48,138 bases of DNA from Nitriliruptorales bacterium (GTDB taxonomy: Bacteria > Actinomycetota > Nitriliruptoria > Nitriliruptorales > JAHWKO01): the NCBI GenBank assembly GCA_036260415.1, contig DASZZX010000032.1:1-48138 (forward strand). The letters are read 5' to 3'. Positions 11,994 through 41,641 of the stretch are shown piece after piece. The position numbers were made by a program, and so were the translations under genes. Position 1 is the stretch's first letter. Every line of letters starts with the position of its first letter. Under the pieces are notes generated by a model that searched no databases, was not told the origin of the DNA, and saw nothing but the letters and a program-made list of their open reading frames with translations.

Positions 11994-12059
11994 TCCCCTC
12001 TTCGGTGCCGCGGCCGGTCTCGACGCTCACCCTCGACCTGGAACAGCGCTACGCCTGAT
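11972..12059. repeat. 23-bp perfect direct repeat (CCTGGAACAGCGCTACGCCTGAT) duplicating the 3' end of the preceding gene
   Basis: The copies are at 11972-11994 and 12037-12059. Flanking similarity extends the repeat to about 45 bp (CTCGACGC[C/T]CACC...CCTGG). Copy 1 holds the stop codon of 11118..11993. Copy 2 holds the ATG (12058) of the endopeptidase gene. Confidence 0.8.
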
Positions 12060-12693
12060 GGCACGCGTGCACGTGCGGCTGCGGGCGGGCGCGCCGTGGT
12101 GGCTAGGGTGCCGTCCGTGTCGCCCCGCCTGCCCCCGCGATCCGGAGGGAGCCCTGCCACGACTGGTCGCGGGTGTCGGCAACCCCTGGTCGGGAGACCT
12201 CGATCTCGGCCCCCGTTTCGTCCGCCGCTACCGCGGGCATGGATGGCCGGCCGACGTCGTCCTGGAGGAACTGACCGTGGCCGCTCAGCGTGTCCTGCAC
12301 CGGCTGTGGGAGCTCCGTCCCGCGGCGCTGGTGGTGGTGGCGGGCTTCCCACGAGGCGACCACCCCGGGACGGTGCGCCGCTACCGGCCTTCCTGCGACA
12401 CCACCGACGAGGCCGACCTCCAGCGACGCCTCGGCGAGAGCGCCGCCGGGGTGATCGACCTCGACCACATCCTCGCGGTGACCAGCTACTTCGGGGCGCT
12501 GCCGGCCGACACCGTCGTGATCGAGGTGGAGCCGGCCCAGACGGTGTTCTCCGAGCGGCTGTCGGCCACGGTCTCGGCACGGCTGCCAGACCTGCTCGCA
12601 CTGGTCGACGGGGAGGTCCGCCGCCGCGCACCCGCCCGCCAGTTGCGGGGTGCCGCGTGCGACCGCCCCGGCCTCCAGGACGGCGGCCTCTGA
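12058..12693 (+). CDS. [NiFe]-hydrogenase maturation endopeptidase (HycI/HybD/HoxW family)
   Basis: Frame of track ORF 11941..12693. Family-like motifs: LVAGVGNPWSGDLDLGP near the N-terminus, PGTVRRY, and AGVIDLDHILAVTSYFGALPADTVVIEVEP. Start taken as ATG 12058; about 30 residues precede the conserved GVGN, so the start is uncertain. Confidence 0.75.
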   Translation: MARVHVRLRAGAPWWLGCRPCRPACPRDPEGALPRLVAGVGNPWSGDLDLGPRFVRRYRGHGWPADVVLEELTVAAQRVLHRLWELRPAALVVVAGFPRGDHPGTVRRYRPSCDTTDEADLQRRLGESAAGVIDLDHILAVTSYFGALPADTVVIEVEPAQTVFSERLSATVSARLPDLLALVDGEVRRRAPARQLRGAACDRPGLQDGGL

Positions 12694-12700: not shown

Positions 12701-13057
12701 TCACTCAGCGGCGGGGTCGCTGGGTAGCGCGTCGACGAGCCGCTGCAGGTCGTCCTTGGGGATGGCGACCAGCCCCACCTCCCGAGCCTGCGCCTCCACC
12801 GCGGGATCCAGGAACGCCGAGAACAGCACGATCGGTGTCTCGATGCCGTCGTCGCGCAGCTGCCGGGCGACCTCGATCCCGGTCATGCGCGGCATCCGCT
12901 GGTCGAGCACGATGGCGTCGTAGGTGTTTGTCCCGCAGCGCGCGAGCGCCTCCTGCCCTGAGGACGCCTCGTCCACCGTCCAGTCCCGTCGGCTCAGCGC
13001 GAGACGGAGCAGGAGCCGGACGTCCTCCTCGTCGTCGACGAGCAGCACCCGCTTCAT
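12701..13057 (-). CDS. response regulator, receiver domain only (CheY-like, no output domain)
   Basis: Track ORF of 118 aa. REC signatures: VLLVDDEEDV, AIVLDQRMPRMTG (phospho-Asp), PIVLFSAF, IPKDD. The ATG overlaps the kinase stop (TGATG). Confidence 0.9.
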   Translation of the reverse strand: MKRVLLVDDEEDVRLLLRLALSRRDWTVDEASSGQEALARCGTNTYDAIVLDQRMPRMTGIEVARQLRDDGIETPIVLFSAFLDPAVEAQAREVGLVAIPKDDLQRLVDALPSDPAAE

Positions 13058-14802
13058 CAGCCGACCTCCCCTGTAGCACGTGGGAGCACCAAGGTGAACC
13101 GGCTCCCCTCCCCGGGGCGGCTGGCCACCCGCACGTCCCCACCCTGGCTGCGCATGATCTGCCGGGTCATGTACAGGCCCAGGCCGGTGCCCTCGACACC
13201 GGTCGTGTCGGGGCTGCGCGTGAACTTATCGAACAGCTTCGCCTGGTCGGCGGGCGGGATGCCGGGCCCCCGGTCGATGACGCTGAGCTCCACGTTGCGA
13301 CCCGCCTCGCGCGCGGTGATCGTCACCGGCGCGTCGGCGGGAGCGTACTTCAACGCGTTGGAGACCAGGTTGCCCAGGGCCAGGTCCAGCCGGCTCTCGT
13401 CGGCCAGCACCGGCGGCAGGTCGTCAGGCACGTCGACCTCGACCCTCCGCGACGCGGAGGTGCTGTCGGTCACCGCGGCCACGATCGCGCGCACGTCGGT
13501 GGGGACCGGCGACACCGACAGATCGAGCCCCGCCTCGAGACGGATGTAGTCGAGGAACTGCACCACGAGCCTCCGCAGACGGCCCACCTGCCGTCCCAGA
13601 CCCAGGCGCATCTGCTGCAGCTCGGCCGGGTCGTGGCTTTCCCCGAACCCCTCCAGCGTGTCCACCAGTCCCACGAGCACCGACAGGGGCGTCTTCATGT
13701 CGTGGGAGATGGCGGCCAGGATCTCGTTGCGGTAGCGGGCCGCCTCCTCCCGGGCGCGGTGTTCGACCAGCCTGTCGCGCAGCAATGCGTTGGACACGCT
13801 GAGGGCGAGGCGGGCGGCGACCTCCTCCATCAGCCCGACGGTGGACTCGTCCACCGACCCCGGCTCCGTGGACACGACCACCAGCGCACCGACCGTGCCC
13901 GTCTCCGTGTGCAGCGGTAGCACCGCCGCCGATCGCACCTGTTCCCATCCCGGCCCGATCAGCGGGAACCCCCGCTCGACGGTCGGCGCGTGCACGGTTT
14001 GACCGCCGGTGATGACCCGTGAGAGCGCCGTGCCGGGCGGAGGTGCGGTGTGCTGCAGACCCACCAGCAGGTCGCCGTCGGGGGCTCCCGGGGACATCGA
14101 CACGCGTCGGATCACCCCCTCGTCGCTCAACACCACGGCGAGGCTGCAGCCGGTGTCCTTCTCCAGCCGTTCGACGATCCCGTCGAGCGCGTGGCGCGGG
14201 TCCAGGGCGTCCGCCAACTGGGCGCCGACGTGGGCCAATAGCCGCCACCGCGACTCGGCTGCCTCCACCTCGCGCAGGAGACGGTGCACCTGGCTGAGGT
14301 CGCGTGCCGCGTGGATGGCACCGTGCACCTTGCCGTCCGCGTCGCGCACGATCGCACAGGACAGGCTGACCTGGCGCCCGCGACCGTCGGGGCGCGCGAC
14401 CGCAGTTTCCAGCGACAGCTGCCCGTCGGGCGCGGCCTCCATCAGGCCCCACGGGGTCGCGGGGACGCGGTCGCGGTACAGCGTGGCGGCGTCGGCCCCG
14501 AGCAGCTCCTCCATCGTCCTTCCGAGGAGCTGCGTGGCAGCCGCGTTGGCGCGAGTCACCGCGCCGTGCGGGTCGACGACCAGCACCGCGTCCGACAGCG
14601 ATCCGAACAGTCGGTCGAGCAGGGCTTCCGTCTGGACGCGGCGCAGGTGCTCGCGGTCCAGCTCCAGTTGGACGTCGGCCAGCGCGTCGAGCGCCTGCGA
14701 CAGCTGACGGGTGACGGTCCGCTCGTCACCGCGGGCGGCCGCGTCGTGCCCAGAGTCCTGCGATCCGCCGCCTCCGGAGTCCGCGCGGACGTCGTCGCTC
14801 AT
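13057..14802 (-). CDS. cytoplasmic sensor histidine kinase (coiled coil-PAS-GAF-HisKA-HATPase)
   Basis: Track ORF of 581 aa with no TM segment. PAS-like region: LSDAVLVVDPHGAVTRANAAATQLLG...IVRDADGKVHGAIHAARD. A GAF-like region of about 150 aa follows. H-box AAISHDMKTPL. N, G1 and G2 boxes: LGNLVSNALKY, DRGPGIP, GTGLGL. The ATG lies 1 nt after the large-subunit stop. Confidence 0.9.
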   Translation of the reverse strand: MSDDVRADSGGGGSQDSGHDAAARGDERTVTRQLSQALDALADVQLELDREHLRRVQTEALLDRLFGSLSDAVLVVDPHGAVTRANAAATQLLGRTMEELLGADAATLYRDRVPATPWGLMEAAPDGQLSLETAVARPDGRGRQVSLSCAIVRDADGKVHGAIHAARDLSQVHRLLREVEAAESRWRLLAHVGAQLADALDPRHALDGIVERLEKDTGCSLAVVLSDEGVIRRVSMSPGAPDGDLLVGLQHTAPPPGTALSRVITGGQTVHAPTVERGFPLIGPGWEQVRSAAVLPLHTETGTVGALVVVSTEPGSVDESTVGLMEEVAARLALSVSNALLRDRLVEHRAREEAARYRNEILAAISHDMKTPLSVLVGLVDTLEGFGESHDPAELQQMRLGLGRQVGRLRRLVVQFLDYIRLEAGLDLSVSPVPTDVRAIVAAVTDSTSASRRVEVDVPDDLPPVLADESRLDLALGNLVSNALKYAPADAPVTITAREAGRNVELSVIDRGPGIPPADQAKLFDKFTRSPDTTGVEGTGLGLYMTRQIMRSQGGDVRVASRPGEGSRFTLVLPRATGEVG

Positions 14803-14803
14803 A

Positions 14804-16642
14804 TCAGTCCAGGCCGCAGGCGCAGCTGGTCGCCTCCCGCACGACCGTGCCCCCGCCGGTGTGCAGGTGGACGGCGCAGGGAAGGCACGGATCGAAGCTG
14901 CGAACCGTCCGCAGGATGTCGATGCCGACGAAGTTGTCGGGGTCGGACACCTCTTCCAGGATGGGGGTGTTAAGCACGGCTTCCTCGTAGGGACCGGGGA
15001 CGCCCCACGGATCGCGGGGGGAGGCCATCCAGGTCGACGGGGTCAGGATCTGGTAGTTGGCCAGCCGCGCGTCCTCCACCCGGCAGTAGTGGGTGAGCGT
15101 CCCTCGGCCCGCCTCCCAGAAGCCGACGCCCACGCCGTCGGCCACCTCGAACGCGGAGCTCATCTCGGTCCGTTCGCTGCGGAACACGTCGAAGGCGCGC
15201 AGCAGGAACGTGTAGCCGGCCATCAGACAGTAGGCCACGTGCACGGCGCGGGCGCGGAGCCGTTCGAAGGCGTTGACCACGTCGGGGACACGCCAGGTGA
15301 TGACCGTCTCGGGCAGCGTGCTCTCCGGCACCGTGATCCGCAACAGCCCGGGCTCGGTCCGGATGAACTCGGTCTCGACCAGCCCGGCTGCCACGGTGAT
15401 CCACTGGCGGGCCAGGGGGCCGGACTCCGCGGGGCGGCGATCCCACCGCGGGGCGGTCGCCCACGAGTAGCGGCCTTTCCAGCTGGTGGCCTCCGGCCGG
15501 GGCAGCGTGCGCTTGTTCGACGGGTGGAAGGGGCTGAGCGGCGCCCCGTCCGGCGTTGTGGTGGCACCATCCGCCCAGCGTTCGTAGAACGAGTGGTCGA
15601 CGAACTCCTCGATGCCCAGGTCGATCTGCCGCAGCCGGGTCGTACGCAGTTCCCCGTCGATGACCACCCCGGGCGTGGACAGGCGGTTGCGTCCCCACGT
15701 GTCGGCGTGGGCGTAGGCGGCGTCGTAGACGTCGGGATCGTCCCAGATCCCGGTGCTGATCAGGTTGGCCTGGCGGATCCCGACCTGGCGGTAGGCGGGG
15801 TCGGCGGCGTAGAAGAACTCGATCAGGTCGTCCCACAGAGTCGCCACCCGCTTGGCGTAGTCCAGTAGGCGGACCATGCGCGCCAGCACCTGGTTGAGGG
15901 TGGCATGGTCCAGGCGGGTCCCGAGCCCGGCCGGGACGACAGCGGAGGGGTGGGGGTACTTGCCGTAGATGAGGGACACGATCTCCCGGCCTGCCCGGGT
16001 CACCTCCAGGGCCTCGGTGACGAACTCCCCGCGCAGCGGGTTGAGTCCCGTCATGATCTCCGCGATCGTGACCTTGCCGTGCGTGCGGGCGTGGGGGGCG
16101 GCCGCACGCTGGGCTCGCTGCCACAGCCGGGGGTTGGTCCGCGTCACCATCTCCTCGGAGTAGTCGGGCCCGGCCAGGAGGAAGAGGTGCAGGCAGTGGT
16201 CGTAGAGCAGCTCGGCCGCCTCGGCCAGGTTGCGGGCGATCACCGTCAGCGGTGGCGGCGCCACGCCGAAGGTCATCTCCAGCGCCATCGCCGCGCACGT
16301 GGAGTGCACCCCTCCGCACACCCCGCACGCCCGGGACGAGATCTCGATCGCTTCCAGCGGATCGCGCCCGCGCAGGATCAACTCGTAGCCACGGAACAGC
16401 ACCGCCTGGGAGTGGGCGGTCGTCACCGCCCGGGCGTGGAGGTCCACCGTGGTGTGGAACGCCAAGGCGCCTGCGACCCGTGTGACCGGGTCGATGGCGA
16501 ACTCCCTGCCGGCCGCCTCCGACGGGTCCGGATCCGGCTGCGGGGTGTCCCTCGGCCCCCTCTCGAGACCGAACCCGCGGCTGTCGTCCAGGTGGGGCTC
16601 GCCGGCCTCGTCGAAGACGATCGGGAGGTTCTCGAAGCACAC
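14804..16642 (-). CDS. [NiFe]-hydrogenase large subunit (atypical)
   Basis: Track ORF of 612 aa with a GTG start. L1 motif RACGVCGGVH and L2 motif DPCLPCAVH provide the four Ni-Fe cysteines. An 18-aa tail follows the His (LH-TGGGTVVREATSCACGLD). The N-terminal IDPVTRVAGAL replaces the usual R-I/V-E-G-H. Confidence 0.9.
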   Translation of the reverse strand: MCFENLPIVFDEAGEPHLDDSRGFGLERGPRDTPQPDPDPSEAAGREFAIDPVTRVAGALAFHTTVDLHARAVTTAHSQAVLFRGYELILRGRDPLEAIEISSRACGVCGGVHSTCAAMALEMTFGVAPPPLTVIARNLAEAAELLYDHCLHLFLLAGPDYSEEMVTRTNPRLWQRAQRAAAPHARTHGKVTIAEIMTGLNPLRGEFVTEALEVTRAGREIVSLIYGKYPHPSAVVPAGLGTRLDHATLNQVLARMVRLLDYAKRVATLWDDLIEFFYAADPAYRQVGIRQANLISTGIWDDPDVYDAAYAHADTWGRNRLSTPGVVIDGELRTTRLRQIDLGIEEFVDHSFYERWADGATTTPDGAPLSPFHPSNKRTLPRPEATSWKGRYSWATAPRWDRRPAESGPLARQWITVAAGLVETEFIRTEPGLLRITVPESTLPETVITWRVPDVVNAFERLRARAVHVAYCLMAGYTFLLRAFDVFRSERTEMSSAFEVADGVGVGFWEAGRGTLTHYCRVEDARLANYQILTPSTWMASPRDPWGVPGPYEEAVLNTPILEEVSDPDNFVGIDILRTVRSFDPCLPCAVHLHTGGGTVVREATSCACGLD

Positions 16643-16645: not shown

Positions 16646-17458
16646 CTACCTCCCCGCGGCGGCCACCAACGGCAACGTGCGGTCGGGGAAGTCTGGACGG
16701 GTGCACCCGTTGCAGTCGCCGCCCACCACCGCGCAGCCACCGAGCCGATTGATCCAGCCGCGGTGGGGGACCGGGCAGGGTGCGGTGAGCGGCTCGGCCG
16801 GTTCGCGTCGCACGCCGTGGACCCTCGCCCGGCGCAGCGGCGTCTCCTCCGCGTACAGCCAGCGCGGCCGACCCAGTTCGTCGATGTCGAAGGGCACCAC
16901 CCCTTCGAGGTGAAGGACCAGGTACTGGACGGTCTCGAGGAAGGCGTCGCCGCTGGGCGCACACCCCGGCACGTTGACCACAGGGAGACCTGCGCGGCTG
17001 CGGAAGCCCGCGCCGAGCAGCGCCCCGACACCGGTCGCGCCGGTGACGCTGCCGGTCGCGGCCGGTATGCCCCCCCACGTGGCACACGTCCCGATGGCCA
17101 CCACGACCTCGGCGCCCGTCGAGAGGTCGCTCACCCACCGCTCGACCGTGACCGGCGCACCGTCGCGCTGGCCGAGACGGGAGAAGCTACCGGTGCCGGC
17201 ACGCGACTGGTCGAGCATCGAACCTTCGACCACCAGCAGGTAGGGGTCGATCTCTCCACGCCGTGCACGTTCGAGCCGTTCCACGTAGTCCCGTCCCGCC
17301 TCGAGCACGAGTTGCGGGTGGACGATCCGTATGTCGGACCTGCTGAGCGTGCCGGCCAGCAGCTCCTCGAGTCGAGGTGACGTCGCACCGAGCACGGACA
17401 TGGTGCAGCCGTCGCAGCCGCCTCCGTGCAGCCACACCACCGTCACCGCGTCGCTCAC
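16646..17458 (-). CDS. [NiFe]-hydrogenase small subunit, no Tat signal
   Basis: Frame of track ORF 16646..17995, trimmed to GTG 17458 (G-run SD about 9 nt upstream). Motifs: WLHGGGCDGC, GTCATWGGIP, VPGCAPSGD and the C-terminal CPVPHRGWINRLGGCAVVGGDCNGC. It has 8 Cys in total. No RRxFxK leader. The stop TAG lies 3 nt before the large-subunit GTG, and a GGGAGG SD sits inside its 3' end. Confidence 0.85.
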   Translation of the reverse strand: MSDAVTVVWLHGGGCDGCTMSVLGATSPRLEELLAGTLSRSDIRIVHPQLVLEAGRDYVERLERARRGEIDPYLLVVEGSMLDQSRAGTGSFSRLGQRDGAPVTVERWVSDLSTGAEVVVAIGTCATWGGIPAATGSVTGATGVGALLGAGFRSRAGLPVVNVPGCAPSGDAFLETVQYLVLHLEGVVPFDIDELGRPRWLYAEETPLRRARVHGVRREPAEPLTAPCPVPHRGWINRLGGCAVVGGDCNGCTRPDFPDRTLPLVAAAGR

Positions 17459-17623
17459 CCGCTGCACCCCCCCAGTCGGCCGGGGACCCCCGTTCGGGTG
17501 CCGTGACGGTAGGCGATGTCGAGGTGGGCCGCTCGCAGCGCTCGCGAGGGCCGTTCCCCCGCTGGTAGGTGCCCGCCGGGTCGCCGTGTGGGACCCTGTC
17601 GACAGCGAACAGGGAGCGAGCCG

Positions 17624-17986
17624 GTGCGCATCCAACCGGGTCAGCTGATCGCCCTCGGCTACGGCAAGTACGTGCGGTCCGACGAGGTCGTGGCGATCGA
17701 ACCGATCGTCGAGGACCGTGGTCCTGGGCGGCGGACCGACGTCTGGGTCCGGGGGGTCCCGGAGCCGATCGTGGCCTCGCGGTCGGACGCCGCGATCGCC
17801 GACGACCTGGTCACACCGGCCGAGGAGGCTGCCAGGATGCAGCAGCTTCGCTCCATGCTGGCACGCGTGCTGGGGGCCCTCGACGGTGTGCCTCCGATGC
17901 TCCGCCGGCTGCTGGCGGACGAGACCGGTGTCGACGTCGCCGCGTTGGCGGCGGAGGGGCGGCGGGTCCTGGACCGCGCCGTCTGA
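17624..17986 (+). CDS. hypothetical protein (weak by-eye resemblance to DUF370/RemA fold)
   Basis: Frame of track ORF 17516..17986, trimmed to GTG 17624 (GGGAG 7 nt upstream). The frame is GC3-rich. LIALGYGKYVRSDEVVAIEP...GRRTDVWV...IVASRS..AIADDL loosely recalls the RemA pattern LINIGFGN.V...R..AIV.P....GRRT. The functional call has low confidence. Confidence 0.55.
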   Translation: MRIQPGQLIALGYGKYVRSDEVVAIEPIVEDRGPGRRTDVWVRGVPEPIVASRSDAAIADDLVTPAEEAARMQQLRSMLARVLGALDGVPPMLRRLLADETGVDVAALAAEGRRVLDRAV

Positions 17987-18120
17987 GACGTCCACGGACG
18001 GTGGCGTCCGGGGCGGTGCCAGCCGCCAGGGGCGGGCGGTCGGGGCGGCGGTCGCAGACCGCTGGCAGCGGCGTCGCGGAGAGCTTCGTAGGATGCGGCG
18101 TCCCGTCCCGAGGAGCTTGC

Positions 18121-18483
18121 ATGAAGGTCGCCTACGTCCTCGCGAACCCCAGCGCCGCCGCCTACAAGGTGGGGCAGATGGTCCTGCCGCAGCTGGAGGA
18201 GGGTTCGCACGGTGCCGACGTCGTCGGCATGTTCTTCTTCGACGACAACAACTGGGTCCTGCGCGCGGGCGACCCGCTCGGCGAGCGTCTGGCTCGTCAG
18301 GCGACGGAACGCGGCATGCTGCTGATGATGTGTGACCAGTGCGCGCTCGCCCGCGGGCTGGCGGAGGGCGAGCCGGGGGACTGCAAGCCCATGAACGTGG
18401 TCGACGGTGTCACGGTGGGCTGCTTCCCGGACCTCTACGCGGCCCTCTCGACCGATCCCCCGGACCACGTCATCACGCTGTGA
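18121..18483 (+). CDS. DsrE/DsrF-like (sulfur-relay fold) family protein
   Basis: Frame of track ORF 17569..18483, trimmed to ATG 18121 (AGGAG 6 nt upstream). 120 aa. MKVAYVLANP...VVGMFFFDDN...LLMMCDQCALARG is typical of small DsrE-like proteins. Confidence 0.7.
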   Translation: MKVAYVLANPSAAAYKVGQMVLPQLEEGSHGADVVGMFFFDDNNWVLRAGDPLGERLARQATERGMLLMMCDQCALARGLAEGEPGDCKPMNVVDGVTVGCFPDLYAALSTDPPDHVITL

Positions 18484-19612: not shown

Positions 19613-20827
19613 CTAGCCCGCCCCTCCGGGGCGATCCACGGACCGGCCGGCACGCCAGACGCGGTGCGGTCGCAGCCCCCACGCCCAGCCGAAGGCGCCC
19701 TCGTGCTCGGCGTCCCACCACACCAGGTCCGCGCGTTGGCCGACGGCCACGGTGCCACGGTCGGGCAGGCGCAGGGAACGCGCCCCGCCGACCGTGGCCG
19801 CCCGCAGAGCCTCGTGGACCGACAGTCCCAGCCCGCCCACCGCCAGCGCCACCACCAGGCTCATGCTGGTGACCCCGCTGGTGCCGGGGTTGTGGTCGCT
19901 GCCGAGCGCGAGGGTGGTGCCGGCCGCGCGCAGGGCCGCCACGTCGGGTCGGGCGCCCATGGACAGCGCGGTGGCCGGGCACAGGGTGGCGACCACGCCG
20001 GCTGCGGCCAGGGCGGCGGCGTCGTCGCGGGTGCTGCGCAGCAGGTGGTCGGCCGACGCCGCCCCTAGCTCCGCGGCGAGCCGCGCCCCGCCCGTGCGGG
20101 CCAGTTCGTCGGCGTGGATCCGCGAGGTCAGCCCGGCAGCCGCGCCGGCCGTCAGGATGCGATGGGCCTGCCGCACCGAGAAGTAGCCGCGGTCGCAGAA
20201 CACGTCACATCCGTCGGCCCCCTCGGCGGCCGCGTCGCCGCTCCAGCCGGCGGCTCGCTCGGTGTAGCTGTCGGCGTCGCCGGCGGCCTCCGGCGGCACG
20301 GCGTGAGCGGCCAGGAAGGTGATGGACAGGTCGGGCAGCGCGGGGTTGCGTCGGAGGCGGTCCAGCAGCCGCACGTCGGCCAGCTCCCCGTCGCGCTCGA
20401 GGTGGTAGCCGGTCTTCGCCTCGACGGTGGTGGTGCCCTGCCACAGCCAGGACGCGAGCCGCCGTTGCACCAGCGTCTCCAGGTCGGCCGCGGCGGCCGT
20501 CCGCGTGGCCCGTACCGTCGCCCAGATGCCGGCGTCCGTTCCCAGATCGTCGTAGGCCCGGCCGGCGCTGCGGTCGGTGAACTCGGCGAACCGCTGCCCG
20601 GCGTAGACCGGGTGGGTGTGGGCGTCGATCAGGCCGGGGGTGACCAGCCCGCCGCCGACGTCCACCTCCTCGGCGACGCGGGCTCCGAGCCCCGTCGGTG
20701 GACGCTCGTGGTCGCCGCCGATCCAGACGATGCGGTCGCCCTCGACGCACAGTGCGGCGCCCACCCGCACCGGCGGGTCGACCGCCGTGATCAGCCGGCC
20801 GATGTTGCGTAGCAGGATCGCGGTCAC
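19613..20827 (-). CDS. hutI: imidazolonepropionase
   Basis: Frame of track ORF 19613..21304, trimmed to GTG 20827, which overlaps the hutF stop (GTGA). Amidohydrolase motifs: GLIDAHTHPV, TTVEAKTGY, IHADE, GSDHNPG. Confidence 0.9.
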   Translation of the reverse strand: MTAILLRNIGRLITAVDPPVRVGAALCVEGDRIVWIGGDHERPPTGLGARVAEEVDVGGGLVTPGLIDAHTHPVYAGQRFAEFTDRSAGRAYDDLGTDAGIWATVRATRTAAAADLETLVQRRLASWLWQGTTTVEAKTGYHLERDGELADVRLLDRLRRNPALPDLSITFLAAHAVPPEAAGDADSYTERAAGWSGDAAAEGADGCDVFCDRGYFSVRQAHRILTAGAAAGLTSRIHADELARTGGARLAAELGAASADHLLRSTRDDAAALAAAGVVATLCPATALSMGARPDVAALRAAGTTLALGSDHNPGTSGVTSMSLVVALAVGGLGLSVHEALRAATVGGARSLRLPDRGTVAVGQRADLVWWDAEHEGAFGWAWGLRPHRVWRAGRSVDRPGGAG

Positions 20828-22194
20828 GCCCCGACCGCCCGTCCGATCGCCCGGTGCAGCTCCCCACGCACGTCCTCCACCAGCCGATGACGGCGGTCCT
20901 CGACCACCAGACGGCCGCCTACGACCACGTGGGTCACGTCGGCGGCGGTCGCAGCGAACACGACGAAGGCGGGGCCGTCCTGGCGTCGGAAGCCCGCCAG
21001 CCGCGGGGAGGCGAGGTCGACCGCGACCAGGTCGCAGAGCCGGCCACGGGCGAGCTCGCCACCGTCCCATCCCAGCGCCAGCATCCCGGCGCGGGTGGCC
21101 GCGTGCAGGAGCTGCTCGGGGCGGTGGCGGCCACGCTCCCCGCTCGCCAGCCGCTGGTTGAGCTCGACCGCCCGCGCCTCCTCGAACAGGTCCACCATGG
21201 CGTGGCTGTCCGACCCGACGCACAGTGGGCTGCCGGCCGCGTGCAGCGCCGCCGCCGGACCGACCCCGTCCCCGAGGGCCCGCTCGGTGGTGGGGCACAG
21301 GCATGCCGCGCTGCGGCTGGAGCCGAGCAGCCGGATGTCGTCGTCGGTGAGGTGGGTGGCGTGCACGGCGGTGGTGCGGGCGCCGAGCACGCCGCGCTCG
21401 GCCAGCAGCCCCGCGGGGGTGCGGCCGGTGGCGACCAGGCAGGCCGCGTTCTCGGCCGGTTGCTCCGAGACGTGCACGTGCAGGGGGGCGCCCCGGTCGG
21501 CCGCCCAGTCGCGCACCACCTCCATGGCGGTGGGATCGACCGCGCGCACCGAGTGGATCGCTGCGCCCAGCGCGACGTGACCGTCGGGGCGCCGGCTCGA
21601 GGCCCGTTCGGCCCAGCGCTGGACGTCGCCGTCGGCGAAGCGACGCTGTACCCCCTGCAGCGGCTGGTCGAACCCGCCTCGCAGGTAGCAGGTGTCGAGC
21701 AGGGTGACGCGGACCCCCGCATCGGCGGCCGCCTCGGCCAGGGCCGCCTGCATGACGTTGGCCTCGGCGTAGGGTCGCCCCGACGGCGCGTGGTGCAGGT
21801 AGTGGAACTCGCCGACCGTGGTAACCCCGGCCAGGGCCATCTCGCAGTAGGTGGCGCAGGCCAGGTCGCGGTAGTGGTCGGGGTCGAGACGGTCGGCCAG
21901 CGCGTACATCCGGTCACGCCAGGTCCAGAAGCTGCCGCCGCACGTCTCGACGCGGCCGCGCAGGGCGCGGTGGAAGGCGTGGCTGTGCGCGTTGGCGAGG
22001 CCAGGCAGGACCAGCCCCGGTAGGCGTGTGGCGCCGGGCGGTGGTGGGCGGTCCTCGCCCACCGCCGTGATGCGGTCCTCGGCCGTCTCGATCACCACAC
22101 GGTGAGCGACCCGTCCACCCGCCGGGTCGGGCAGCCATGCCAGGTCGGCGAACCACGCGCTCGCCCCTCGGCGGACGTCGCCGGGCTCAGCCAT
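20824..22194 (-). CDS. hutF: formimidoylglutamate deiminase
   Basis: Track ORF of 456 aa. Amidohydrolase-type motifs: [33 protein letters not shown]. Its position between hutU and hutI fits this call. Confidence 0.85.
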
Positions 22195-23848
22195 CGTTCA
22201 GCATCGGGGAGGTCACGCCGCGCGAGCGGGCGACCTCGCGGGCGCGGTCGTAGCCGGCGTCGGCGTGGCGCAGCACGCCTGTGGCCGGGTCGTTGGTCAG
22301 TACCCGCTCGAGCTTGCGCTCCGCCAGCTCGGTGCCCTCGGCCACCGCGACCTGGCCGGCGTGGATCGCCTTGCCGATGCCCACACCCCCGCCGTGGTGG
22401 ACGCTCACCCACGACGCCCCCGACGAGGTCGCGACGAGGGCGTTCAGGATCGGCCAGTCGGCGATCGCGTCGGACCCGTCGAGCATCCCCTCCGTCTCGC
22501 GGTACGGCGACGCCACCGAGCCGGCGTCGAGGTGGTCGCGGCCGATCACGATCGGCGCGCCGACCTCGCCCGTGCGCACCAGGCGGTTGAAGGCCAGGCC
22601 CGCGCGGTGACGCTCGCCGTAGCCCAGCCAGCAGATCCGGGCCGGCAGGCCCTGGAAGGCCACGCGCTCGCCGGCCAGCTCCAGCCACCGGGCCAGCGCC
22701 CTGTCCTCGGGGAAGAGGTCGGCCACTACCCGGTCGGTGACGTGGATGTCGCGCTCGTCGCCCGACAGCGCCACCCAGCGGAAGGGTCCCTTGCCCTCGC
22801 AGAACAGCGGCCGGATGAACGCTGGCACGAACCCCGGGTAGGCGAAGGCGTCGGCGAACCCGCCCAGCTTGGCTTCCCCCCGCAGGTTGTTGCCGTAGTC
22901 GAACACCACCGCACCCGCCTTCTGGAACCCGACCATCGCCGCGCAGTGGGTCGCTATGGAGGCGCGCGCCCGCTGGACGTACCCCCTCGGGTCGCGGACG
23001 CGCAGCTCGGCGGCTTCGTGCAGGGTCAGGCCCGCCGGGACGTAGCCGTGGAGCGGGTCGTGGGCGGAGGTCTGGTCGGTGACGGCATCCACGTCCACAC
23101 CGCGGCGCAGCAGCTGGGGGAGCACCTCCGCGGCGTTGCCGACCACGCCGACCGACAGCGGCCGGCCCTGCCGCCTCGCCGTCAGGCTCAGGTCCACCGC
23201 GTCATCGAGGGAGTCCGCGACCTCGTCGAGGTAACCGGTCCGCACCCGACGTCGGACGCGCGCCGGATCAACCTCCACGCAGAGGACCACGCCCTCGTTC
23301 ATGGTCACGGCCAGAGGCTGCGCCCCGCCCATGCCCCCGAGGCCCGAGGTGAGGGTGAGCGTCCCTCGCAAGCTCTCGCCGAAGCGCTGGCGGGCGAGCG
23401 CGGCGAACGTCTCGTAGGTGCCCTGCAGGATCCCCTGGGTGCCGATGTAGATCCAGGAGCCGGCGGTCATCTGCCCGTACATCGTGAGGCCTGCTGCCTC
23501 GAGCTCCCAGAAGGTCTCCCAGTCCGCCCACTCCGGCACCAGGAGCGAGTTGGCCAGCAGCACCCGGGGCGCCCACTCGTGCGTGCGCAGGACCCCGACC
23601 GGCTTCCCGGACTGCACTAGCAAGGTCTCGTCGTCCTGCAGCGCCCGCAGCGAGCGGACGATCGCGTCGAAGGCCTCCCACGACCGCGCCGCCCGACCCG
23701 ACCCCCCGTAGACCACCAGGTCCTGTGGCCGCTCGGCGACCTCAGGGTCGAGGTTGTTCATCAGCATCCGCAGCGCGGCCTCCTGCGGCCAGCCGCGGCA
23801 GCTGCACACGCGGCCGCGCGGCGCCCTCACCTGTCGCACACCCGCCAT
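22187..23848 (-). CDS. hutU: urocanate hydratase
   Basis: Frame of track ORF 22187..23932, trimmed to ATG 23848. Motifs: RAPRG...[41 protein letters not shown], and the highly conserved tail [14 protein letters not shown]. Confidence 0.92.
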
Positions 23849-24633: not shown

Positions 24634-27078
24634 TCAGGCCGCGTGCTGCTGCGGGTCGCGACCGAAGCGGCGCAGCCGCAGCGAGTTGGTGACCACGCTG
24701 ACCGACGAGAAGGCCATGGCGGCGCCGGCGATGATCGGGTTGAGCAGCCCCACGGCGGCCAGCGGGATGGCCCCGGTGTTGTAGACGAACGCCCAGCCCA
24801 GGTTCTGCAGGATCGTGCGGTAGGTGCGGCGTGACAGCTGGATCGCGGTCACCACACCGTCCAGACGGTCGCGCATCAGGGTGAGGTCGCTGGACTCGAT
24901 GGCGACGTCGGTGCCGGTGCCGATGGCGATGCCGAGGTCGGCCTGCACCAGCGCCGGGGCGTCGTTGACCCCGTCGCCGACCATGGCGACGACCTCGCCG
25001 TCGCGTTGCAGCCGCTCGATCTCGCTCCTCTTGTCCCGCGGCAGCACCTCGGCCAGGACCCGATCGATGCCGACCTGGCGGGCGATGGCCGCGGCGGTGC
25101 GGGCGTTGTCACCCGTGATCATCGCTACCTCCAGCCCCATGCGGTGCAGGCGCTCGACCACGCCGGCGGCGTCGTCCTTGAGGGTGTCGGCGACCGCGAG
25201 CACGCCCCGCACCTCGCCGTCCCAACCGGCGAACACGGCCGTCTTACCCTGCTCCTCGAGGGTCGTCGCCGCGTCGTCGAGCCTGTCGGGGACCACCAGG
25301 CCGGCCTCGGCGGCCAGCTTGCGGCGGCCCACCCACACCGCGGTGCCGGCGACCTCCCCACGCACGCCGTGGCCGGCGACCGCCTCGAACCCGGTCACGG
25401 TGGGCAGGTCGATCCCGCGCCGCCGCGCCGCCGCGGCCACGGCCCGGCCGATGGGATGCTCGCTGTCGGCCTCGACCGCGCCGGCCCGCCGCAGGAGCGC
25501 GACCTCCTCCGTCCCCGCCCCGGCCACCACGTCGGTGAGTGCCATCTCGCCACGGGTCAGCGTCCCGGTCTTGTCGAACACCACCGTGGTGATCGTGCGG
25601 GTGCGCTCGAGCGCCTCGACGCCCTTGATGAGGATGCCCAGGTCGGCGCCCCGCCCGGTGCCGACCATGATCGCCGTGGGAGTGGCCAGACCCAGCGCGC
25701 ACGGGCAGGCGATGATCAGCACCGCGACCGCGGCGACCAGCCCGCCGACCGCGTCGCCGGCGAGCAGCGACCAACCTGCGAAGGTGAGCGCGGCGATGCC
25801 GATGACCGCCGGCACGAACACGGCCGAGATGCGGTCGGCCAGCCGCTGGACCGCGGCCTTGCCCGCCTGCGCCTCCTCGACCTGCCGCACGATCTGGGCG
25901 AGCGCGGTCTCGGCGCCCACCGCGGTGGCCCGCACGGTCAACACGCCGGAGCTGTTGACGGTGGCGCCGGCCACCTTGCTGCCCTCGGCCTTGTCCACCG
26001 GGAGCGACTCGCCGGTCAGCATCGACTCGTCCACCGCCGACGCCCCGGCCACGACCACGCCGTCGGTGGGGATCTTCTCGCCAGGGCGGACCCGCAGCAG
26101 GTCGCCGACGCGCACCTGCTCGATCGCAACCATGACCTCCCGGCCGTCACGCACCACGCGGGCCTCACGGGCTCCGAGCTCCAGCAGGGCGCGGATCGCT
26201 CTGCCGGCGCGGCTCTTGGCGCGCGCCTCGAAGTAGCGGCCCAGCACCAGGAACGCGATGATCAGCGCGGCGGTGTCGAAGTACACCTCGCCGCCGGTGA
26301 ACAGCACGACGGTCGAGTAGACGTAGGCGGCCAGGGTGCCCAGCGCGATCAACGTGTCCATGTTGGCGGTGAGGTGACGGGCGCGTCTGGCGGCTTCGCG
26401 CAGGAACGGCCAGCCGACCCACCACTGCACCGGCGTGGCCAGCGCGAACTGCAGCCACCGACCGGTTGTGGTCTCGCCGGCGCCGCCCGGCAGGAACGCC
26501 AGCGCCATCACGGCCAGGCCGAGCGGCCAGGCGATCAGGACCCGCCGCAGCCACCCGCGCCGGGCGGCCTCCTCGGGGTCCTCGTCCCCGGCCACCTCAC
26601 GCGACAGCTCCGCGGCCGGCGACAGGCCGTAACCGGCCTGGTCGACCGCGGCCTGCAGGGCCTCCACGGAGGCCACACCGTGGTCGAGCTCCACCCGCGC
26701 ACGAGCGGTCGCGAAGTTGACGTCGGCGCGTACCACCCCGGGTTGGCGGCTGAGGGCCTTCTGCACGCGCGCGGCGCACGATCCGCAGGTCATGCCCTCG
26801 ACCTGAAGGTCGAGGGTGGTGACGCCGCTGTGCCGCAGCCGGTAGCCGAGTCGATCCACCGCCTCGGCGAGCGTGGCCTCGTCCACCTCCGGCTCGACCT
26901 CGACACGTGCTCGGCCGGTCGCGAAGTTCACCTCGGCGTCCACGACCCCGGGTTGGCGGCTGAGGGTCTTCTGCACGCGCGCGGCGCACGACCCGCAGGT
27001 CATCCCCTCGACGTCGAAGTCGAGGCTGCGCGAGCGGCGTGCGATCGTGTCGCTCACCGGCATCCTCCTCGTCGTCAC
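24634..27078 (-). CDS. copA: copper-translocating P1B-type ATPase with two N-terminal HMA domains
   Basis: Track ORF of 814 aa. It has [13 protein letters not shown] twice, TGES, the CPC motif ([13 protein letters not shown]), [15 protein letters not shown] and MVGDG. The GTG start overlaps the csoR stop (GTGA). Confidence 0.93.
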
Positions 27079-27395
27079 GTTCCAGCGCCCACGCCACCGA
27101 GCTCGTCGTGGCTCAGGGTTGGGCGCAGCGCGCGACGGTCGTACTTCAACGTCTCCATCAGCTCATCCACGATCTCTTCGGTCCGCCCGGCGCGGACGGC
27201 CTCGGCCACGCACGTCTCCAGGTGGTTGCGCAGCACGGCGCGGCTGGCGGACTCAAGCAGGCCCTGCACCGCGGAGAGCTGCTTCATCACGGCCGGGCAG
27301 TACGAGTCCTGTTCCACCATCCGCACGATGCCGTCCAGCTGACCGCGTGCGGTTCTCAAGCGTGCGAGCACGCTGCGCTGGTGCTCCGGCAGCAT
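27075..27395 (-). CDS. csoR: CsoR/RcnR-family metal-sensing transcriptional repressor
   Basis: Frame of track ORF 27075..27899, trimmed to ATG 27395 (GAGGAGGAG 6 nt upstream). 106 aa. [35 protein letters not shown]...LRNHLETC carries the C-H-C copper-ligand pattern. Confidence 0.88.
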
Positions 27396-27455
27396 GTGCT
27401 CCTCCTCACCCTCGCCGACGTGGCCGACCCCCATGACCCGGCCGCTGGGGCACCC

Positions 27456-29488: not shown

Positions 29489-29968
29489 ATGGACGCAGCG
29501 GGCACGTCGCTGCTCCTGCTGGAGGTTGACCAGCGCCGTTGCGCGCTGCCCACCGGTGCCGTGGTGGAGCTGCAGCGCGCCGTGGCCCAGGAGCCGCTGC
29601 CGGCCGCACCGGCCGTGGTGGAGGGCCTGATCGACCTGCGCGGCGAGACCGTGCCGGTGCTCGACCTGCGCCTGCGTCTCGGCCTGGCGCCGCGTGCCCC
29701 GCACCCCGACCACGTGCTGGTGGTCGTCGACCTCGACGGCCGGACGGTCGCGCTGCGGGCGGACGCGGCGCTGGACGTGGTGGAGGTTCCAGAGGAGGTC
29801 ATCGAGGACGCCCGCGACGCCGTGCCTGGCGCCCGCTTCGTCGCCGGTCTGCTGCACTCGCCGGACGGCATCGTGGTGATCCACGACCTCGCGCAGTTCC
29901 TGTCGTGGGAGGAGGCGACCGCGCTCGACGCCGCGCTCGCTCGGGGCGCGCCAGCGGGGCAGCGGTGA
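29489..29968 (+). CDS. cheW: CheW-like coupling protein
   Basis: Track ORF of 159 aa. CheW pattern: LLLLEVDQRRCALPTGAVVELQR...VEGLIDLRGETVPVLDLRLRLG...VVVDLDGRTVALRADA. Confidence 0.85.
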   Translation: MDAAGTSLLLLEVDQRRCALPTGAVVELQRAVAQEPLPAAPAVVEGLIDLRGETVPVLDLRLRLGLAPRAPHPDHVLVVVDLDGRTVALRADAALDVVEVPEEVIEDARDAVPGARFVAGLLHSPDGIVVIHDLAQFLSWEEATALDAALARGAPAGQR

Positions 29969-31203
29969 CCGGCGCGCAGACCGACGACGTGACCCCTCTC
30001 GCCCGCTACCTGGAGGCGCGCACCGGTCTGAGCGTCGACGGTCCCCGCCAGACGGCGCGCCTGCGGAGGGCTGTCGCCAGGTCCGGGCAGAACGATTCCG
30101 CAGCCTACGTGGCGCTGCTGCGGCGTGACGACGCCGCCTTCGATCAGCTGGTCGCCGAGGTGACGGTCACCGAAAGCTACTTCTTCCGCGAGCCCGGCCA
30201 CTTCGCGGCGCTGCGGACCACGATCGTCCCCGACCTCATCGCGGACCGGCCCGCCCATCACGTGCTGCGGTTCTGGAGCGCCGGCTGTGCGGGCGGCGAG
30301 GAGCCCTACACGCTGGCGATCGTGCTCGACCAGGCCGGTTGGGCGGACCGCAGCCGCATACTCGCCACCGACCTGTCGACGTCGGCGCTGGATCGAGCCC
30401 GCAGGGCCGTCTACGCCGACTGGTCGCTGAGGAGCCTGGAGCACCGCCAGCGGCGCCTCTGGTTCCGGCCGGTGGTGGGCGGTCACCGCCTCGACGAGCG
30501 GTACGCGCGACGCGTGACCTTCCGCCGCAGCGGCCTGCTCGACGAGTCCCCCGTGGACGGCGACGTGGCCCGGGCAGGGTTCGACGTGATCCTCTGTCGC
30601 AACGTGCTCGTGCATCTCACCTCCGATGCCGTCCGTCAGGTGGCCGCTCGCCTGGCCGCGGCACTGGCCCCGTGGGGGCGGCTGATCACCGGCGCGGGCG
30701 ATCCTCCGCTCCTGCCTGTGGCAGGCGTCGAGCCGGCGACCACGCCGAACGGGGTCGTCTACCGCCGCGTCGGCGGCCGTGCCGCGACCGCCGCACCCGA
30801 GCCTCCTTCGCGGCGCCGCGGCGGGAGGGCGCCCGACGCCCACGCAGCCTGGGACCAGCACGACCAGCCCGACGAGTCCACGTCCCTCGACGCCTCGCGG
30901 CACCTTCTGCGCGCCACCCTGCTGCTCGAGACCGGCCGCCCACACCAAGCCGCGGAGGCCGCCCGGGCCGCTGCGTACCTGCGCCCGGACCTCTCCGCGG
31001 CGCACCTGACGTTGGGCGTCGCCCTGGTCGGCGCGGGCAACCTGCGGGCAGCCCACCGCGCCTTCCGCACCGCCGGCGCCCAGCTGGCCGCGGCCCCGCC
31101 CCACCAGGTGGTGCCGTTCAGCGGAGGCGAGCGGGCGGGTCGCCTGCTGCAGCTGGCCACCGACCACGAACGACGAACGGCGGTCGGGGAGTTGGTGGAG
31201 TGA
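29965..31203 (+). CDS. cheR: CheR-type chemoreceptor methyltransferase with C-terminal TPR-like extension
   Basis: Frame of track ORF 29539..31203 from GTG 29965, which overlaps the cheW stop (GTGA). Motifs: TESYFFREPGHF, RFWSAGCAGGEEPYTLAI, FDVILCRNVLVHL. The C-terminal 120 aa or so are Ala-rich helical repeats. Confidence 0.88.
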   Translation: MTGAQTDDVTPLARYLEARTGLSVDGPRQTARLRRAVARSGQNDSAAYVALLRRDDAAFDQLVAEVTVTESYFFREPGHFAALRTTIVPDLIADRPAHHVLRFWSAGCAGGEEPYTLAIVLDQAGWADRSRILATDLSTSALDRARRAVYADWSLRSLEHRQRRLWFRPVVGGHRLDERYARRVTFRRSGLLDESPVDGDVARAGFDVILCRNVLVHLTSDAVRQVAARLAAALAPWGRLITGAGDPPLLPVAGVEPATTPNGVVYRRVGGRAATAAPEPPSRRRGGRAPDAHAAWDQHDQPDESTSLDASRHLLRATLLLETGRPHQAAEAARAAAYLRPDLSAAHLTLGVALVGAGNLRAAHRAFRTAGAQLAAAPPHQVVPFSGGERAGRLLQLATDHERRTAVGELVE

Positions 31204-31808
31204 CGCAGCCCACCCCCGACGAGGCGCCGCACGAGCTGCAACGCGGGGCCAGGCGTGTGGCGCGCCCCGCGGAGGAGCCGTCCTCGGGCGCGGCCGAGCG
31301 TGAGCTGGAACGCCGGGCCAGGCAGCTGGCACGCCGCGCGGCCGAGCCGACCCCGGACGGGGCGCTCCAGCTGCTGACGTTCTCCGCCGCCGGCACGACG
31401 TTCGGTGTCGAATCGGTGGGCGTGCGCGAAGTGCAGCCGGTCGAGCACCTCGCGCGTCTTCCGGCCGGTGCCCGACCCCTGGTCGGCCTCGTCGCGACCC
31501 GGGGCGAATTGCTCCCGGTCGCCACCCTCGCCGGGCTGTTCGGGACCGGAGCCCAACCGCAGGGGCGCGGCTGGGTGGTCGTGGTCGACGACGAGCGTGC
31601 GCCGCTGGGACTCCTCGCCGACGACGTGCACGGGTTGATCGAGGTCTGCGCCGCAGCGGTGAGCGCTCCGCCCGCCGGCCTGCTGACCGCCGCCGCCGAC
31701 CTGGTACGCGGCGTGACCGCCGACGGGGTGGTCGTCCTGGACGGGCCGGCCCTGCTCGAGCGCCCGAAGCTCAGCCTCGCGACGGGTGCCAACGGAGGAC
31801 CACCATGA
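31200..31808 (+). CDS. cheW: second CheW-like coupling protein with about 55-aa N-terminal extension
   Basis: Frame of track ORF 30339..31808 from GTG 31200, which overlaps the cheR stop (GTGA). Pattern: [21 protein letters not shown]...[22 protein letters not shown]...[18 protein letters not shown]. Confidence 0.8.
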
Positions 31809-33271
31809 GGGTGACGCTCAGCCGCCAGATCCTGGCTGGCTACGCGGTGGCGGTGGGCGCGCTGGTCGCGGTCATCGTGGTCGCTGCGATGGCCCTGGAC
31901 CGCGCCGCCGACGCCAAGGACGAGATCATCAACCATGACGTGCGCGCGGTCGTCGCCGCCTGGAAGCTCCGGAGCGCTCTGGACGAGCAGGCCGTCCAGC
32001 ACCGCGGGTTCCTGCTCACCGGCGACGAGGACCTGCTCGCCAGGCGCGCGGCGGCGGCCGCCGAATTCGACGCCCTGCTGCGAGAGCTGAGGGAACTGGT
32101 CTCGCCCGATCGGGGAGCGGCGCTGCTCGACTCGATCGCGTCGGCGGAGGCCGACTGGGCGGCGGCCACCGACGCGGTGATCGCGCGGCGGCGGTCCGGC
32201 CAGGTCGACCTGGCTGCCCTAGGCCGCACGGTCGAGCAGCGTCTGGTCCCCGCCCGGCGTGAGGTTGGTCTGGCGATCGACGAGCTGATCGCGCAGCAGG
32301 AGGCCACGATCGCGGCCAACATCCAGGCGTCCGACGGACAGGTCGCCGCTGCTCGCTGGCTGACGATCATCCTCGGCGTGGGCGCCGCCGCGGCCGCAGC
32401 CGCGATCGGGCTGTGGGTCACACGCGATGTCCGGCGCCAGGTCCAGATGCACTCCGCCGACATCGACGGGGCCACCGCCGAGATCCTCGCCGGCACCCGC
32501 CAGCAGGTGGAGGGATCGGCGCGACAGTCGGCCGCCGTGCAGCAGACGGTGGCGACGGTGGAGGAGCTCGAGCGCACATCCGACCAGAGCGCCGAGCGGG
32601 CCCGGGCCGTGGCGGACACGGCCCAGCGCTCCGCTGAGACCGCGCAGGCCGGCCGCCGAGCGGTCGCGGACTCGTTCGCCGGCATGGAGGACATCCGCGG
32701 GCAGGTGGACCAGATCGCGACCAGCATCGTGGAGCTGGCCGATCGCGCCCAGGCCGTCTCCGACATCGTCGCGACGGTCGAGGACATCGCCGACCAGACC
32801 CATCTGCTGGCCCTGAACGCGTCGATCGAGGCGGCACGCGCGGGCGAGCACGGCAAGGGCTTCGCGGTGGTCGCAGGCGAGGTCCGCACCCTCGCGGACC
32901 AGTCGAAGCAGGCCACCACGCAGGTTGGGGAGATCATCGCTGAGATCCAGCGGGCGATGAACGCCGCCGTGATGGTCACCGAGCAGGGCACCAAGAGCGT
33001 GACCGAGGGTGTGGAGCTGATCGCCGGGGCCGGGCGGACGATCGAAGATCTCGCCGAGACGGTCGCGTCAGCCACCCTGGCCGCCGAGCAGATCGCCGCG
33101 TCGGCCGGACAGCAGGCGGTGGCGACCACCCAGATCAGCCAGGCCATGCACGACGTCCGCGACGCCACGGAGCAGGGTCTCGCCTCGTCCCGGCAGGTGG
33201 AGGAGCGCGCCCGCGACCTCGACGTGGTGGCACGCGCCCTGCGAGCGCTGGTGGGGAACCACCAGCCGTGA
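31805..33271 (+). CDS. methyl-accepting chemotaxis protein (2 TM, helical periplasmic sensor, CHASE3-like by eye)
   Basis: Track ORF of 488 aa. TM1 is [22 protein letters not shown] and TM2 is [21 protein letters not shown]. The highly conserved signalling hairpin is [37 protein letters not shown]. The ATG overlaps the upstream stop (ATGA). Confidence 0.9.
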
Positions 33272-40450: not shown

Positions 40451-40574
40451 GTGATCACCTCCGTCGCTCTCCCGGTCACCCTCGTGGATCCGGGAACACG
40501 CGTCGCACATCGCTGCCGCGGGGAGCCGTCAACGGGGACCACCTCCGTGGCGGGTCGCTGCTGCGGAGCGCCGC

Positions 40575-41582: not shown

Positions 41583-41595
41583 GCGCCCGACCTCC

Positions 41596-41641
41596 TGCGA
41601 ACCGTTCGCAGGCATGCTAGTGGTCGTGCGAACCGTTCGCA
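41596..41641. promoter_or_regulatory. two identical 15-bp 7-1-7 palindromes TGCGAAC-C-GTTCGCA (candidate Fur-family operator pair)
   Basis: The copies are at 41596-41610 and 41627-41641, with 31 bp between their starts. They bracket the stop of the fur-family gene (41617). Copy 1 abuts the AGGAGG SD of the substrate-binding gene. Confidence 0.5.

Follow-up and report, generated by a model that had tools for sequence, protein, structure and literature searches.

The subject of this analysis is a [NiFe] hydrogenase encoded together with a two-component signalling system on the minus strand of a 48,138-nucleotide stretch of DNA from a Nitriliruptorales bacterium (contig DASZZX010000032.1; the whole stretch is referred to here as the window). 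Four genes follow one another: a hydrogenase small subunit of 273 amino acids (16646..17467), the large subunit of 612 amino acids (14804..16642; PF00374, E 2.6e-71), a sensor histidine kinase of 581 amino acids (13057..14802) and a receiver-only response regulator of 118 amino acids (12701..13057; PF00072). They are closely packed, with gaps of 3, 1 and -1 nt. The large subunit starts with GTG 3 nt after the small-subunit stop, with GGGAGG just upstream; the kinase ATG lies 1 nt after the large-subunit stop, and the ATG of the regulator overlaps the stop of the kinase (TGATGA). Within the kinase, profile matches place an N-terminal helix and PAS domain at 14281-14721, followed by GAF (13798-14205), HisKA with the H-box AISHDMKTPL (13528-13731) and HATPase (13075-13401) domains. 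Convergent with the operon, on the plus strand, is a gene for a hydrogenase maturation endopeptidase of the HupD/HycI family (12058..12693), which scored 53.7 bits against TIGR00072 (cut-off 47.45). G+C content at third codon positions (GC3) is 0.86-0.93 in the window's open reading frames (ORFs), and no Rieske or transmembrane (TM) gene was found in the window operon. The same four or five genes recur at 79% identity in a Nitriliruptorales metagenome-assembled genome (MAG), and orthologs of the receiver-only regulator are present in three of the other loci that we compared (L001, L164 and L169).

The large subunit belongs to a clade that we designate S, described below. It keeps all four Ni-Fe cysteines, as an earlier note on this DNA had read directly from the sequence: Cys106 and Cys109 lie in the L1 motif RACGVCGGVH (residues 104-113; 16304..16333) and Cys586 and Cys589 in the L2 motif DPCLPCAVH (residues 584-592; 14867..14893). 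The N-terminal L0 block reads RVAGA (16466..16480), the codons cgg gtc gca ggc gcc (16480-16466) giving R55 V56 A57 G58 A59. The register of this block, originally set by eye, was upheld by HMMER, which aligned 'dpvtrvagal' of the window protein without gaps onto 'dpitriegh' of Escherichia coli Hyd-1 and also onto 'dpitriqgh' of the Hyd-1 E28Q variant (5LMM). This puts Ala57 where Hyd-1 has its proton-transfer Glu28. Across 40 aligned homologs R55, A57 and G58 are invariant. Of the 120 closest homolog clusters the motif was readable in 119, and all of these fit the pattern R[VI][AS]G[ASTM][LMF], none having Glu or His in this block; such constancy indicates that RVAGA is not due to chance. The four cysteines are invariant, as are the canopy residues R513, D148 and D584 (R509, D118 and D574 of Hyd-1).

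Both ends of the protein carry conserved segments. After the L2 His comes a C-terminal extension, LHTGGGTVVREATSCACGLD (14807..14866), of 20 residues and not the 18 first counted, a number obtained only when the leading 'LH' is left out. It bears the conserved signature ..R[DE]A[TS][TS]CxC, in which A604, C607 and C609 are invariant in the 40 aligned homologs, and its removal by the protease is presumed. The prediction that the enzyme matures by endopeptidase cleavage is indirectly supported by the retention of this tail together with the TIGR00072 gene, whose product is 34% identical to that of a HycI-family gene in the Hyl (group 1l) cluster of locus L165 and whose homologs follow the large subunit in most group 1l loci. 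About 45 residues in front of the IDPVTR block had been described as non-conserved, which is correct for the variable residues ∼20-45 and incorrect for the start of the protein. This N-terminal extension, MCFENLPIVFDEAGEPHL (16589..16642), has M1, C2, L6, P7, I8, F10, D11, G14 and L18 conserved at 90% or more in the S clade (n = 40); its start, MCFKNLPIEFD, recurs in group 1l, and the extension is absent from group 1h. Cys2, within the consensus MCFxNLPIxFD, and the tail residues Cys607 and Cys609 are invariant both in the S clade and in group 1l, even though the tail is presumed to be cleaved. AlphaFold2 (AF2) modelled the large subunit at pLDDT 83.8 (residues 22-40 and the tail below 50), with low confidence for both of these Cys-bearing terminal segments (16589-16642 and 14807-14866). 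The best fold match of the model by Foldseek was 5AA5_C (TM 0.85/0.92).

The earlier note had expected R-[IV]-E-G-H at L0. This holds for standard enzymes, such as HoxG of the membrane-bound hydrogenase (MBH) and Hyd-1, both of which read RIEGH, and more generally separates groups 1a-e and 2a (Hya, Desulfovibrio and Huc types) from the window protein, but it does not hold for the lineage to which the window protein itself belongs. The closest solved structure is the group 1h enzyme AH of Cupriavidus necator (5AA5, E 2e-146), which reads DPITRIVGSLG (RIVGS). Homologs at ∼41-44% identity (Streptomyces, Terriglobia, C. necator pHG1) have the motif set RIVGSLG / RICGICGDNH / DPCLPCGVH and correspond to group 1h, RIVGSLG being present in AH and in all 1h loci but one, which reads RIIGNLG. 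A second tier, at ∼47-55% identity and from many phyla, has in nearly all cases RVAGALA / RACGVCGGVH / DPCMPCTTH, shares the MCFKNLPIEFD N-terminus, ends in a tail of the form ..RE[VI]N[TS]CxCG and corresponds to group 1l. The few loci at 61-70% identity are members of the window's own clade. The group 1l loci almost all read R[VI]AGAL, mostly RVAGALA, and they include loci with the published Hyl gene order of the Hymenobacter roseosalivarius type (Ortiz et al., bioRxiv 10.1101/2020.08.06.239558): in L165 and L173 the genes for HylS and HylL are separated by four or five small TM genes, and those for a Rieske protein and a HycI/HupD protease come after them. RVAGA-type motifs are thus common in an already described subgroup, an outcome that the earlier note had named as refuting its inference, and, as judged from these alignments, R[VI]AGA is a lineage trait of group 1l-type hydrogenases and not an oddity of the window gene. 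The motif also gives no support to the signalling-type or mechanistically unusual enzyme that the missing Glu and His had suggested. HoxC, the classical sensor of H2, retains the Glu (RVEGD), while Glu-less 1h and 1l enzymes oxidize H2, AH doing so slowly at <0.5 µmol per min per mg (<0.5 U/mg; PMC11023054), so the absence of the L0 Glu and His is not in itself the mark of a sensor.

To place the window protein we used a neighbor-joining tree of 277 large subunits, with bootstraps calculated on a 70-taxon subsample (100 replicates). The S clade comprises 123 sequences, namely the 120 closest homolog clusters and window-like loci, and was monophyletic in 98/100 bootstraps; group 1h was recovered in 100/100, as was the grouping of S, 1l and 1h relative to HoxG and HoxC. 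Since core 1l itself was recovered in only 14-47 of 100 replicates, S may be either sister to group 1l or nested within it. Mean large-subunit identity was 0.66 within S, 0.52 between S and 1l, 0.42 between S and 1h, and 0.31 between S and HoxC. For each subunit there are at least 120 homolog clusters (at the 90% identity level), spread over several phyla and 58-83% identical to the window protein. Scans of genomes and metagenomes contained at least four S-type loci among the matches listed (L003, L022, L083 and L084), and the other S loci were obtained through 11 single-protein look-ups.

The large subunits of S and group 1l are very much alike. The window protein has the group 1l signatures MCFKNLPIEFD, RVAGALA and RACGVCGGVH, and the two families share L0 R[VI]AGALA, a Cys-containing tail, a 4-Cys proximal cluster, a HupD-type protease and 5AA5 as the best template for both. 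Only three positions, each conserved at 90% or more, separate S from 1l: A133/G, V591/T and D603/E. The L2 motif accordingly ends in AVH in the window rather than in the TTH of group 1l, a form found in 0/120 S sequences, which end in [AT]VH or, in a few cases, AAH; the Hyl tail reads ..RE[VI]N[TS]C, as against ..R[DE]A[TS][TS]C in S. We considered whether the character of a sensor could be set by the catalytic subunit and rejected the idea, as a search for gas-channel or active-site changes yielded just these three positions; with so few differences the catalytic subunit is essentially a Hyl large subunit. Group 1h (AH of C. necator, Hhy of Mycobacterium smegmatis) is more distant. It resembles S in lacking Glu and His in L0, in having a C-terminal extension with its protease, in being cytoplasmic without a Tat signal and in its 4-Cys medial cluster. 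It differs in forming a separate clade at 42% identity, in its L1 and L2 motifs (RICGICGDNH and DPCLPCGVH), which the window protein does not have, in a proximal cluster ligated by three Cys and an Asp (CDGD, D35 of AH) where the window has CDGC, in possessing a distal cluster and NifU and DUF5947 accessory genes, and in lacking the N-terminal MCF extension.

Two further branches of this lineage were seen. L020 (573-2246), L141 (3377-5035), L075 (1360-3009) and L160 form another 1l-related clade (bootstrap 99/100), in which the large subunit stops right at the L2 His (DPCM[SA]CA[TS]H), like HoxC, and L0 reads RV[TA]G[AG]L; these enzymes have a full-size three-cluster small subunit, and their genes lie directly upstream of a Hyl pair in Solirubrobacterales. 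A Halobacteriales archaeon MAG (L004:4286-6196) encodes a 1l-like large subunit of 52% identity, with RVAGAL, L2 ending in TVH and an acidic tail of 40 amino acids, alongside a full three-cluster small subunit; its place in the tree is in neither the S clade nor core 1l.

It is in the small subunit that S departs clearly from its relatives. The window small subunit (PF01058; best PDB match the 5AA5 small subunit HofK, E 2e-52) retains the proximal site (Cys18/21/128/169) and the medial site (Cys231/245/252/255). An alignment with Hyl, AH, HoxB and HoxK, all of which keep the distal His and three Cys, showed that it has no C-terminal extension and only a short Cys-free linker where these relatives have their distal ligands. 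At residues ∼208-230, ETPLRRARVHGVRREPAEPLTAP (16778..16846), the ligands HxxC...Cx4-5GC are substituted or deleted. The same is true throughout the family. A database search with the small subunit returned at least 120 clusters with a median length of 279 amino acids. In 120/120 S-type clusters there was no Cys in any of the three distal Cys columns, two of which are deleted, and the distal His column is replaced, by Pro in 94 of the 120; the four medial Cys were present in 120/120 and the proximal Cys were all present. By comparison, a motif scan of the fetched loci found the distal Cys-x(4-6)-Gly-Cys motif in 62/62 group 1l and 50/50 group 1h small subunits. Hyl small subunits are ∼400-434 amino acids long and have three clusters, whereas those of S are ∼270 amino acids long, with neither distal cluster nor C-terminal extension. 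In one locus (L163:9208-9998) the gene for the S-type small subunit is broken up into two ORFs, reflecting either assembly frameshifts or real decay.

A second constant feature of S is a signalling gene. In all 15 S loci examined (the window, L001, L003, L022, L083, L163-L166 and L169-L174) a gene encoding a PAS signalling protein begins within ∼130 nt of the large-subunit stop, in contrast to 0/79 cases beside 1l genes and 0/46 beside 1h genes (at least 1.5 kb of flank). The N-terminal helix and PAS domain of these proteins are one family (AAWPDMxxNLQxAYxEL... / LSQALDxLAxVQLELD...), scoring 136-225 bits against a single hidden Markov model (HMM), a range that includes L163 although that locus was held out of the model. 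What follows the conserved module varies, from a histidine kinase or hybrid kinase to GGDEF-EAL or nothing beyond the PAS domain. A PAS kinase with a separate receiver is found in L164 and L166, a hybrid PAS-kinase-receiver in L165, a PAS-GAF kinase with a PadR-receiver protein in L169 and with a large receiver protein in L172, a PAS kinase with a receiver-PAS-STAS protein in L170, PAS-HATPase proteins in L173 and L174, PAS only in L171, PAS ... GAF-PAS-GGDEF-EAL in L163, and kinase homologs in L003, L022 and L083. The electron-transfer genes of Hyl are absent: no electron-acceptor gene (Rieske, HylTM or cytochrome) was found in any S operon examined, so that HylTM1-5, which lie between the subunit genes of Hyl, and the Rieske protein HylE have no counterpart in S, and only 3 nt separate the subunit genes in the window. 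The window gene belongs to a sub-family that is widespread, linked to signalling genes, equipped with a two-cluster small subunit and apparently undescribed; the searchable literature, coverage of which is incomplete, yielded no account of a group 1 [NiFe] hydrogenase linked to a histidine kinase.

Some individual signalling genes deserve mention. In L163 (11959-14624) the N-terminal helix and PAS segment is out of frame with the GAF-PAS-GGDEF-EAL gene that follows it, which may again be due to assembly frameshifts or to real decay. The PAS domain of the receiver-PAS-STAS protein encoded by the second gene of the L170 operon (13069-14244) is a close paralog (124.7 bits) of the N-terminal PAS linked to the hydrogenase, a hint that the output may be partner switching. 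A kinase and receiver 44-45% identical to the window pair are encoded ∼7 kb from a Hyl cluster in L038 (17713-20200), with no S-type hydrogenase alongside.

Third, five S loci adjoin a complete second hydrogenase, of group 1l in L003, L022, L165 and L173 and of group 1h in L174, where the neighbor has RIVGN, a CDGD proximal site and NifU/DUF5947 genes. In two of these loci a helix-turn-helix (HTH) domain, HTH_17 (PF12728), precedes the S-type small subunit in the same polypeptide (L173:10001-11062 and L174:10001-11029; proteins P0230 and P0229). The domain is conserved between the two and its gene lies 166-206 bp from the divergent 1l or 1h operon, and the fusion may be a one-component H2-responsive regulator. 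In L169, hypD and hypE are located 7 kb away. For the window itself we rejected an HTH upstream of the small subunit: the N-terminus of the long ORF 16646-17995 has low GC3 and is not an HTH, and the strand opposite this N-terminus carries the likelier gene. We likewise rejected as parts of the system the upstream genes at 17624-17986 and at 18001-18483 (plus strand; a SaoD/DsrE-family protein just upstream of the small subunit), neither of which is conserved in other S loci.

Among the [NiFe] hydrogenases of HydDB, two groups alone, 2b and 2c, are classed as sensors (PMC5037454). In group 2b (HoxBC-HoxJ-HoxA of C. necator, HupUV-HupT-HupR) a small subunit, a large subunit and a PAS histidine kinase are encoded together, as in S, and the layout N-terminal helix-PAS-HisKA-HATPase is common to both; H2-dependent control of uptake hydrogenase operons is likewise the role that we propose for S. 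C. necator HoxJ was the best outsider to the helix and PAS HMM (a full-length match at 47.9 bits, generic PAS domains reaching at most 42 bits) and is collinear with the S-linked kinase of L165 (E 4e-21). An HMM of the N-terminal helix alone did not detect HoxJ, however, so that the likeness of the kinases is one of shared architecture, with specific homology to HoxJ suggestive only. The hydrogenases themselves differ considerably. HoxC, at 31% identity, is in the outgroup of the tree; its last residue is the L2 His and it requires no protease, in line with the earlier statement that characterized sensors lack a C-terminal extension, while S has its 20-residue tail and a TIGR00072 gene. HoxB retains three clusters as well as a C-terminal extension, HoxC has Ile at the CGxC position where the window protein has Val, and the output protein HoxA is a sigma-54 activator where that of the window is a bare receiver. 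Because phylogeny, C-terminal extension and protease, cluster content and gas-channel residues all differ, the window system, to go by its sequences, appears to work like HoxBC-HoxJ but is not group 2b. The PAS-GAF-PAS-GGDEF-EAL protein that follows the hydrogenase in L163 recalls group 2c (putative, diguanylate-cyclase-linked), which belongs to another phylogenetic group, a separation that we take from HydDB's definition only.

Since the distal cluster has been lost, a PAS gene always follows and 1l or 1h operons adjoin several S loci, we consider it probable that the window encodes an H2-sensing regulatory [NiFe] hydrogenase that arose inside the 1h/1l uptake lineage, to which enzymes credited with the oxidation of atmospheric H2 belong, independently of the group 2b sensors. 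The 'signalling-type' conclusion of the earlier note is thus retained on these grounds, although not as something that follows from the L0 motif. In such a system H2 would be split at a complete Ni-Fe site that lacks the L0 Glu and His, as in the 1l and 1h relatives, and the electrons would pass into the small subunit and fill its proximal and medial [4Fe-4S] clusters. With neither distal cluster nor C-terminal extension, and with the HylTM proteins and Rieske partner missing as well, these electrons would have no respiratory exit. The co-translated kinase would form a complex with the hydrogenase, its N-terminal helix and PAS module reading the redox or conformational state of the enzyme, and the signal would pass from there to the receiver-only regulator, whose phosphorylation the kinase would set. 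Elsewhere in the family the same module would feed cyclic di-GMP (c-di-GMP) enzymes or partner-switching proteins, or the signal would go to an HTH carried by the small subunit itself. Uptake hydrogenase operons of group 1l or 1h elsewhere in the genome would be the likely targets.

Several observations weigh against this interpretation. The large subunit is nearly identical to that of group 1l in its motifs, none of the three discriminating positions having a known role, and its gas-channel positions are Val108 and Leu where HoxC has Ile and Phe. Unlike the known sensors, S has kept the C-terminal extension and the protease. With the distal domain gone, the medial cluster would be exposed, and a soluble acceptor could still take electrons from it. 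No target hydrogenase, hyp genes or DNA-binding output were found in the 48-kb window, and a search of sequencing runs matched DNA runs only and no RNA runs. Finally, the 15 S loci were picked from long contigs and not at random, and the S-clade tree is a neighbor-joining and not a maximum-likelihood tree. Some of these points would suit an uptake hydrogenase of the ordinary, energy-conserving kind, a streamlined form of Hyl whose medial cluster passes electrons to a soluble carrier and which the two-component system regulates or is co-regulated with: catalytic 1l enzymes are almost indistinguishable from S at the functional motifs of the large subunit, they too have a tail and a dedicated protease, and the catalytic residues of S are invariant. 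We nevertheless regard this as unlikely in view of the loss of the distal cluster in every one of 120 small subunits, the lack of an electron-acceptor gene in the S operons examined, a PAS partner that stays constant while the output domains change, a complete second hydrogenase of the same lineage beside five of the S operons and the HTH joined to the small subunit in two.

Sensing of a signal other than H2 seems less probable still. The Ni-Fe site or the clusters could report redox poise, O2 or CO to the PAS-GAF kinase; Ni-Fe sites bind CO and react with O2, the signalling module is rich in PAS and GAF domains, and the window has no adjacent hydrogenase as a target. Against this stand the conservation of the complete H2-activating site (the four Cys and the canopy R513/D148/D584), the fact that the genomic partners, where present, are H2-uptake operons, and the HoxJ-like architecture of the kinase. 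That the gene is a decaying, functionless Hyl paralog, with RVAGA as part of the decay, we find scarcely credible. Genes are split or frameshifted at one locus (L163) and hyp genes are absent from the window, but decay is contradicted by conservation, the reading frames and metal ligands having been maintained intact in at least 120 clusters per subunit across several phyla, by RVAGA being the consensus of a functional group, 1l, and by the high GC3 of the window ORFs.

The remainder of the window contains other groups of genes. A complete chemotaxis-like cluster on the plus strand (29489-38626), 12 kb from the receiver-only regulator, encodes CheW, CheR, CheW, a CHASE3 methyl-accepting chemotaxis protein, CheA, CheB and a receiver-PAS-HisKA-HATPase protein. 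On the minus strand are a CsoR repressor with a Cu-type P-ATPase (24634-27434), histidine-utilization genes (19613-23830; urocanase and two amidohydrolases) and ZnuABC with a Fur-family regulator (38715-42351).

Returning to the H2-sensing hydrogenase that we favor, a broader evolutionary proposal seems to us about evenly balanced: with S, sensors of H2 may have arisen among [NiFe] hydrogenases independently for a third time, inside the 1h/1l lineage, through deletion of the distal-cluster domain and docking of a HoxJ-like PAS module in its place. Such sensors would have inherited an O2-insensitive, possibly high-affinity chemistry and would report trace or near-atmospheric H2 to control Hyl and Hhy, with the HTH-FeS-subunit proteins as one-component variants. 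Atmospheric-H2-oxidizing soil bacteria are the main biological sink for H2. If our interpretation is correct, S would provide a concrete, testable candidate sensor for these organisms, from the same lineage as Hyl and Hhy and often encoded beside their operons, and it would illustrate a simple route from enzyme to sensor in which the exit cluster is lost and a PAS partner gained. Synthetic biology would also gain a switch that responds to H2 and tolerates O2. As to the L0 block, our survey shows the Glu to be dispensable across a large group of apparently functional enzymes, which bears on models of proton transfer.

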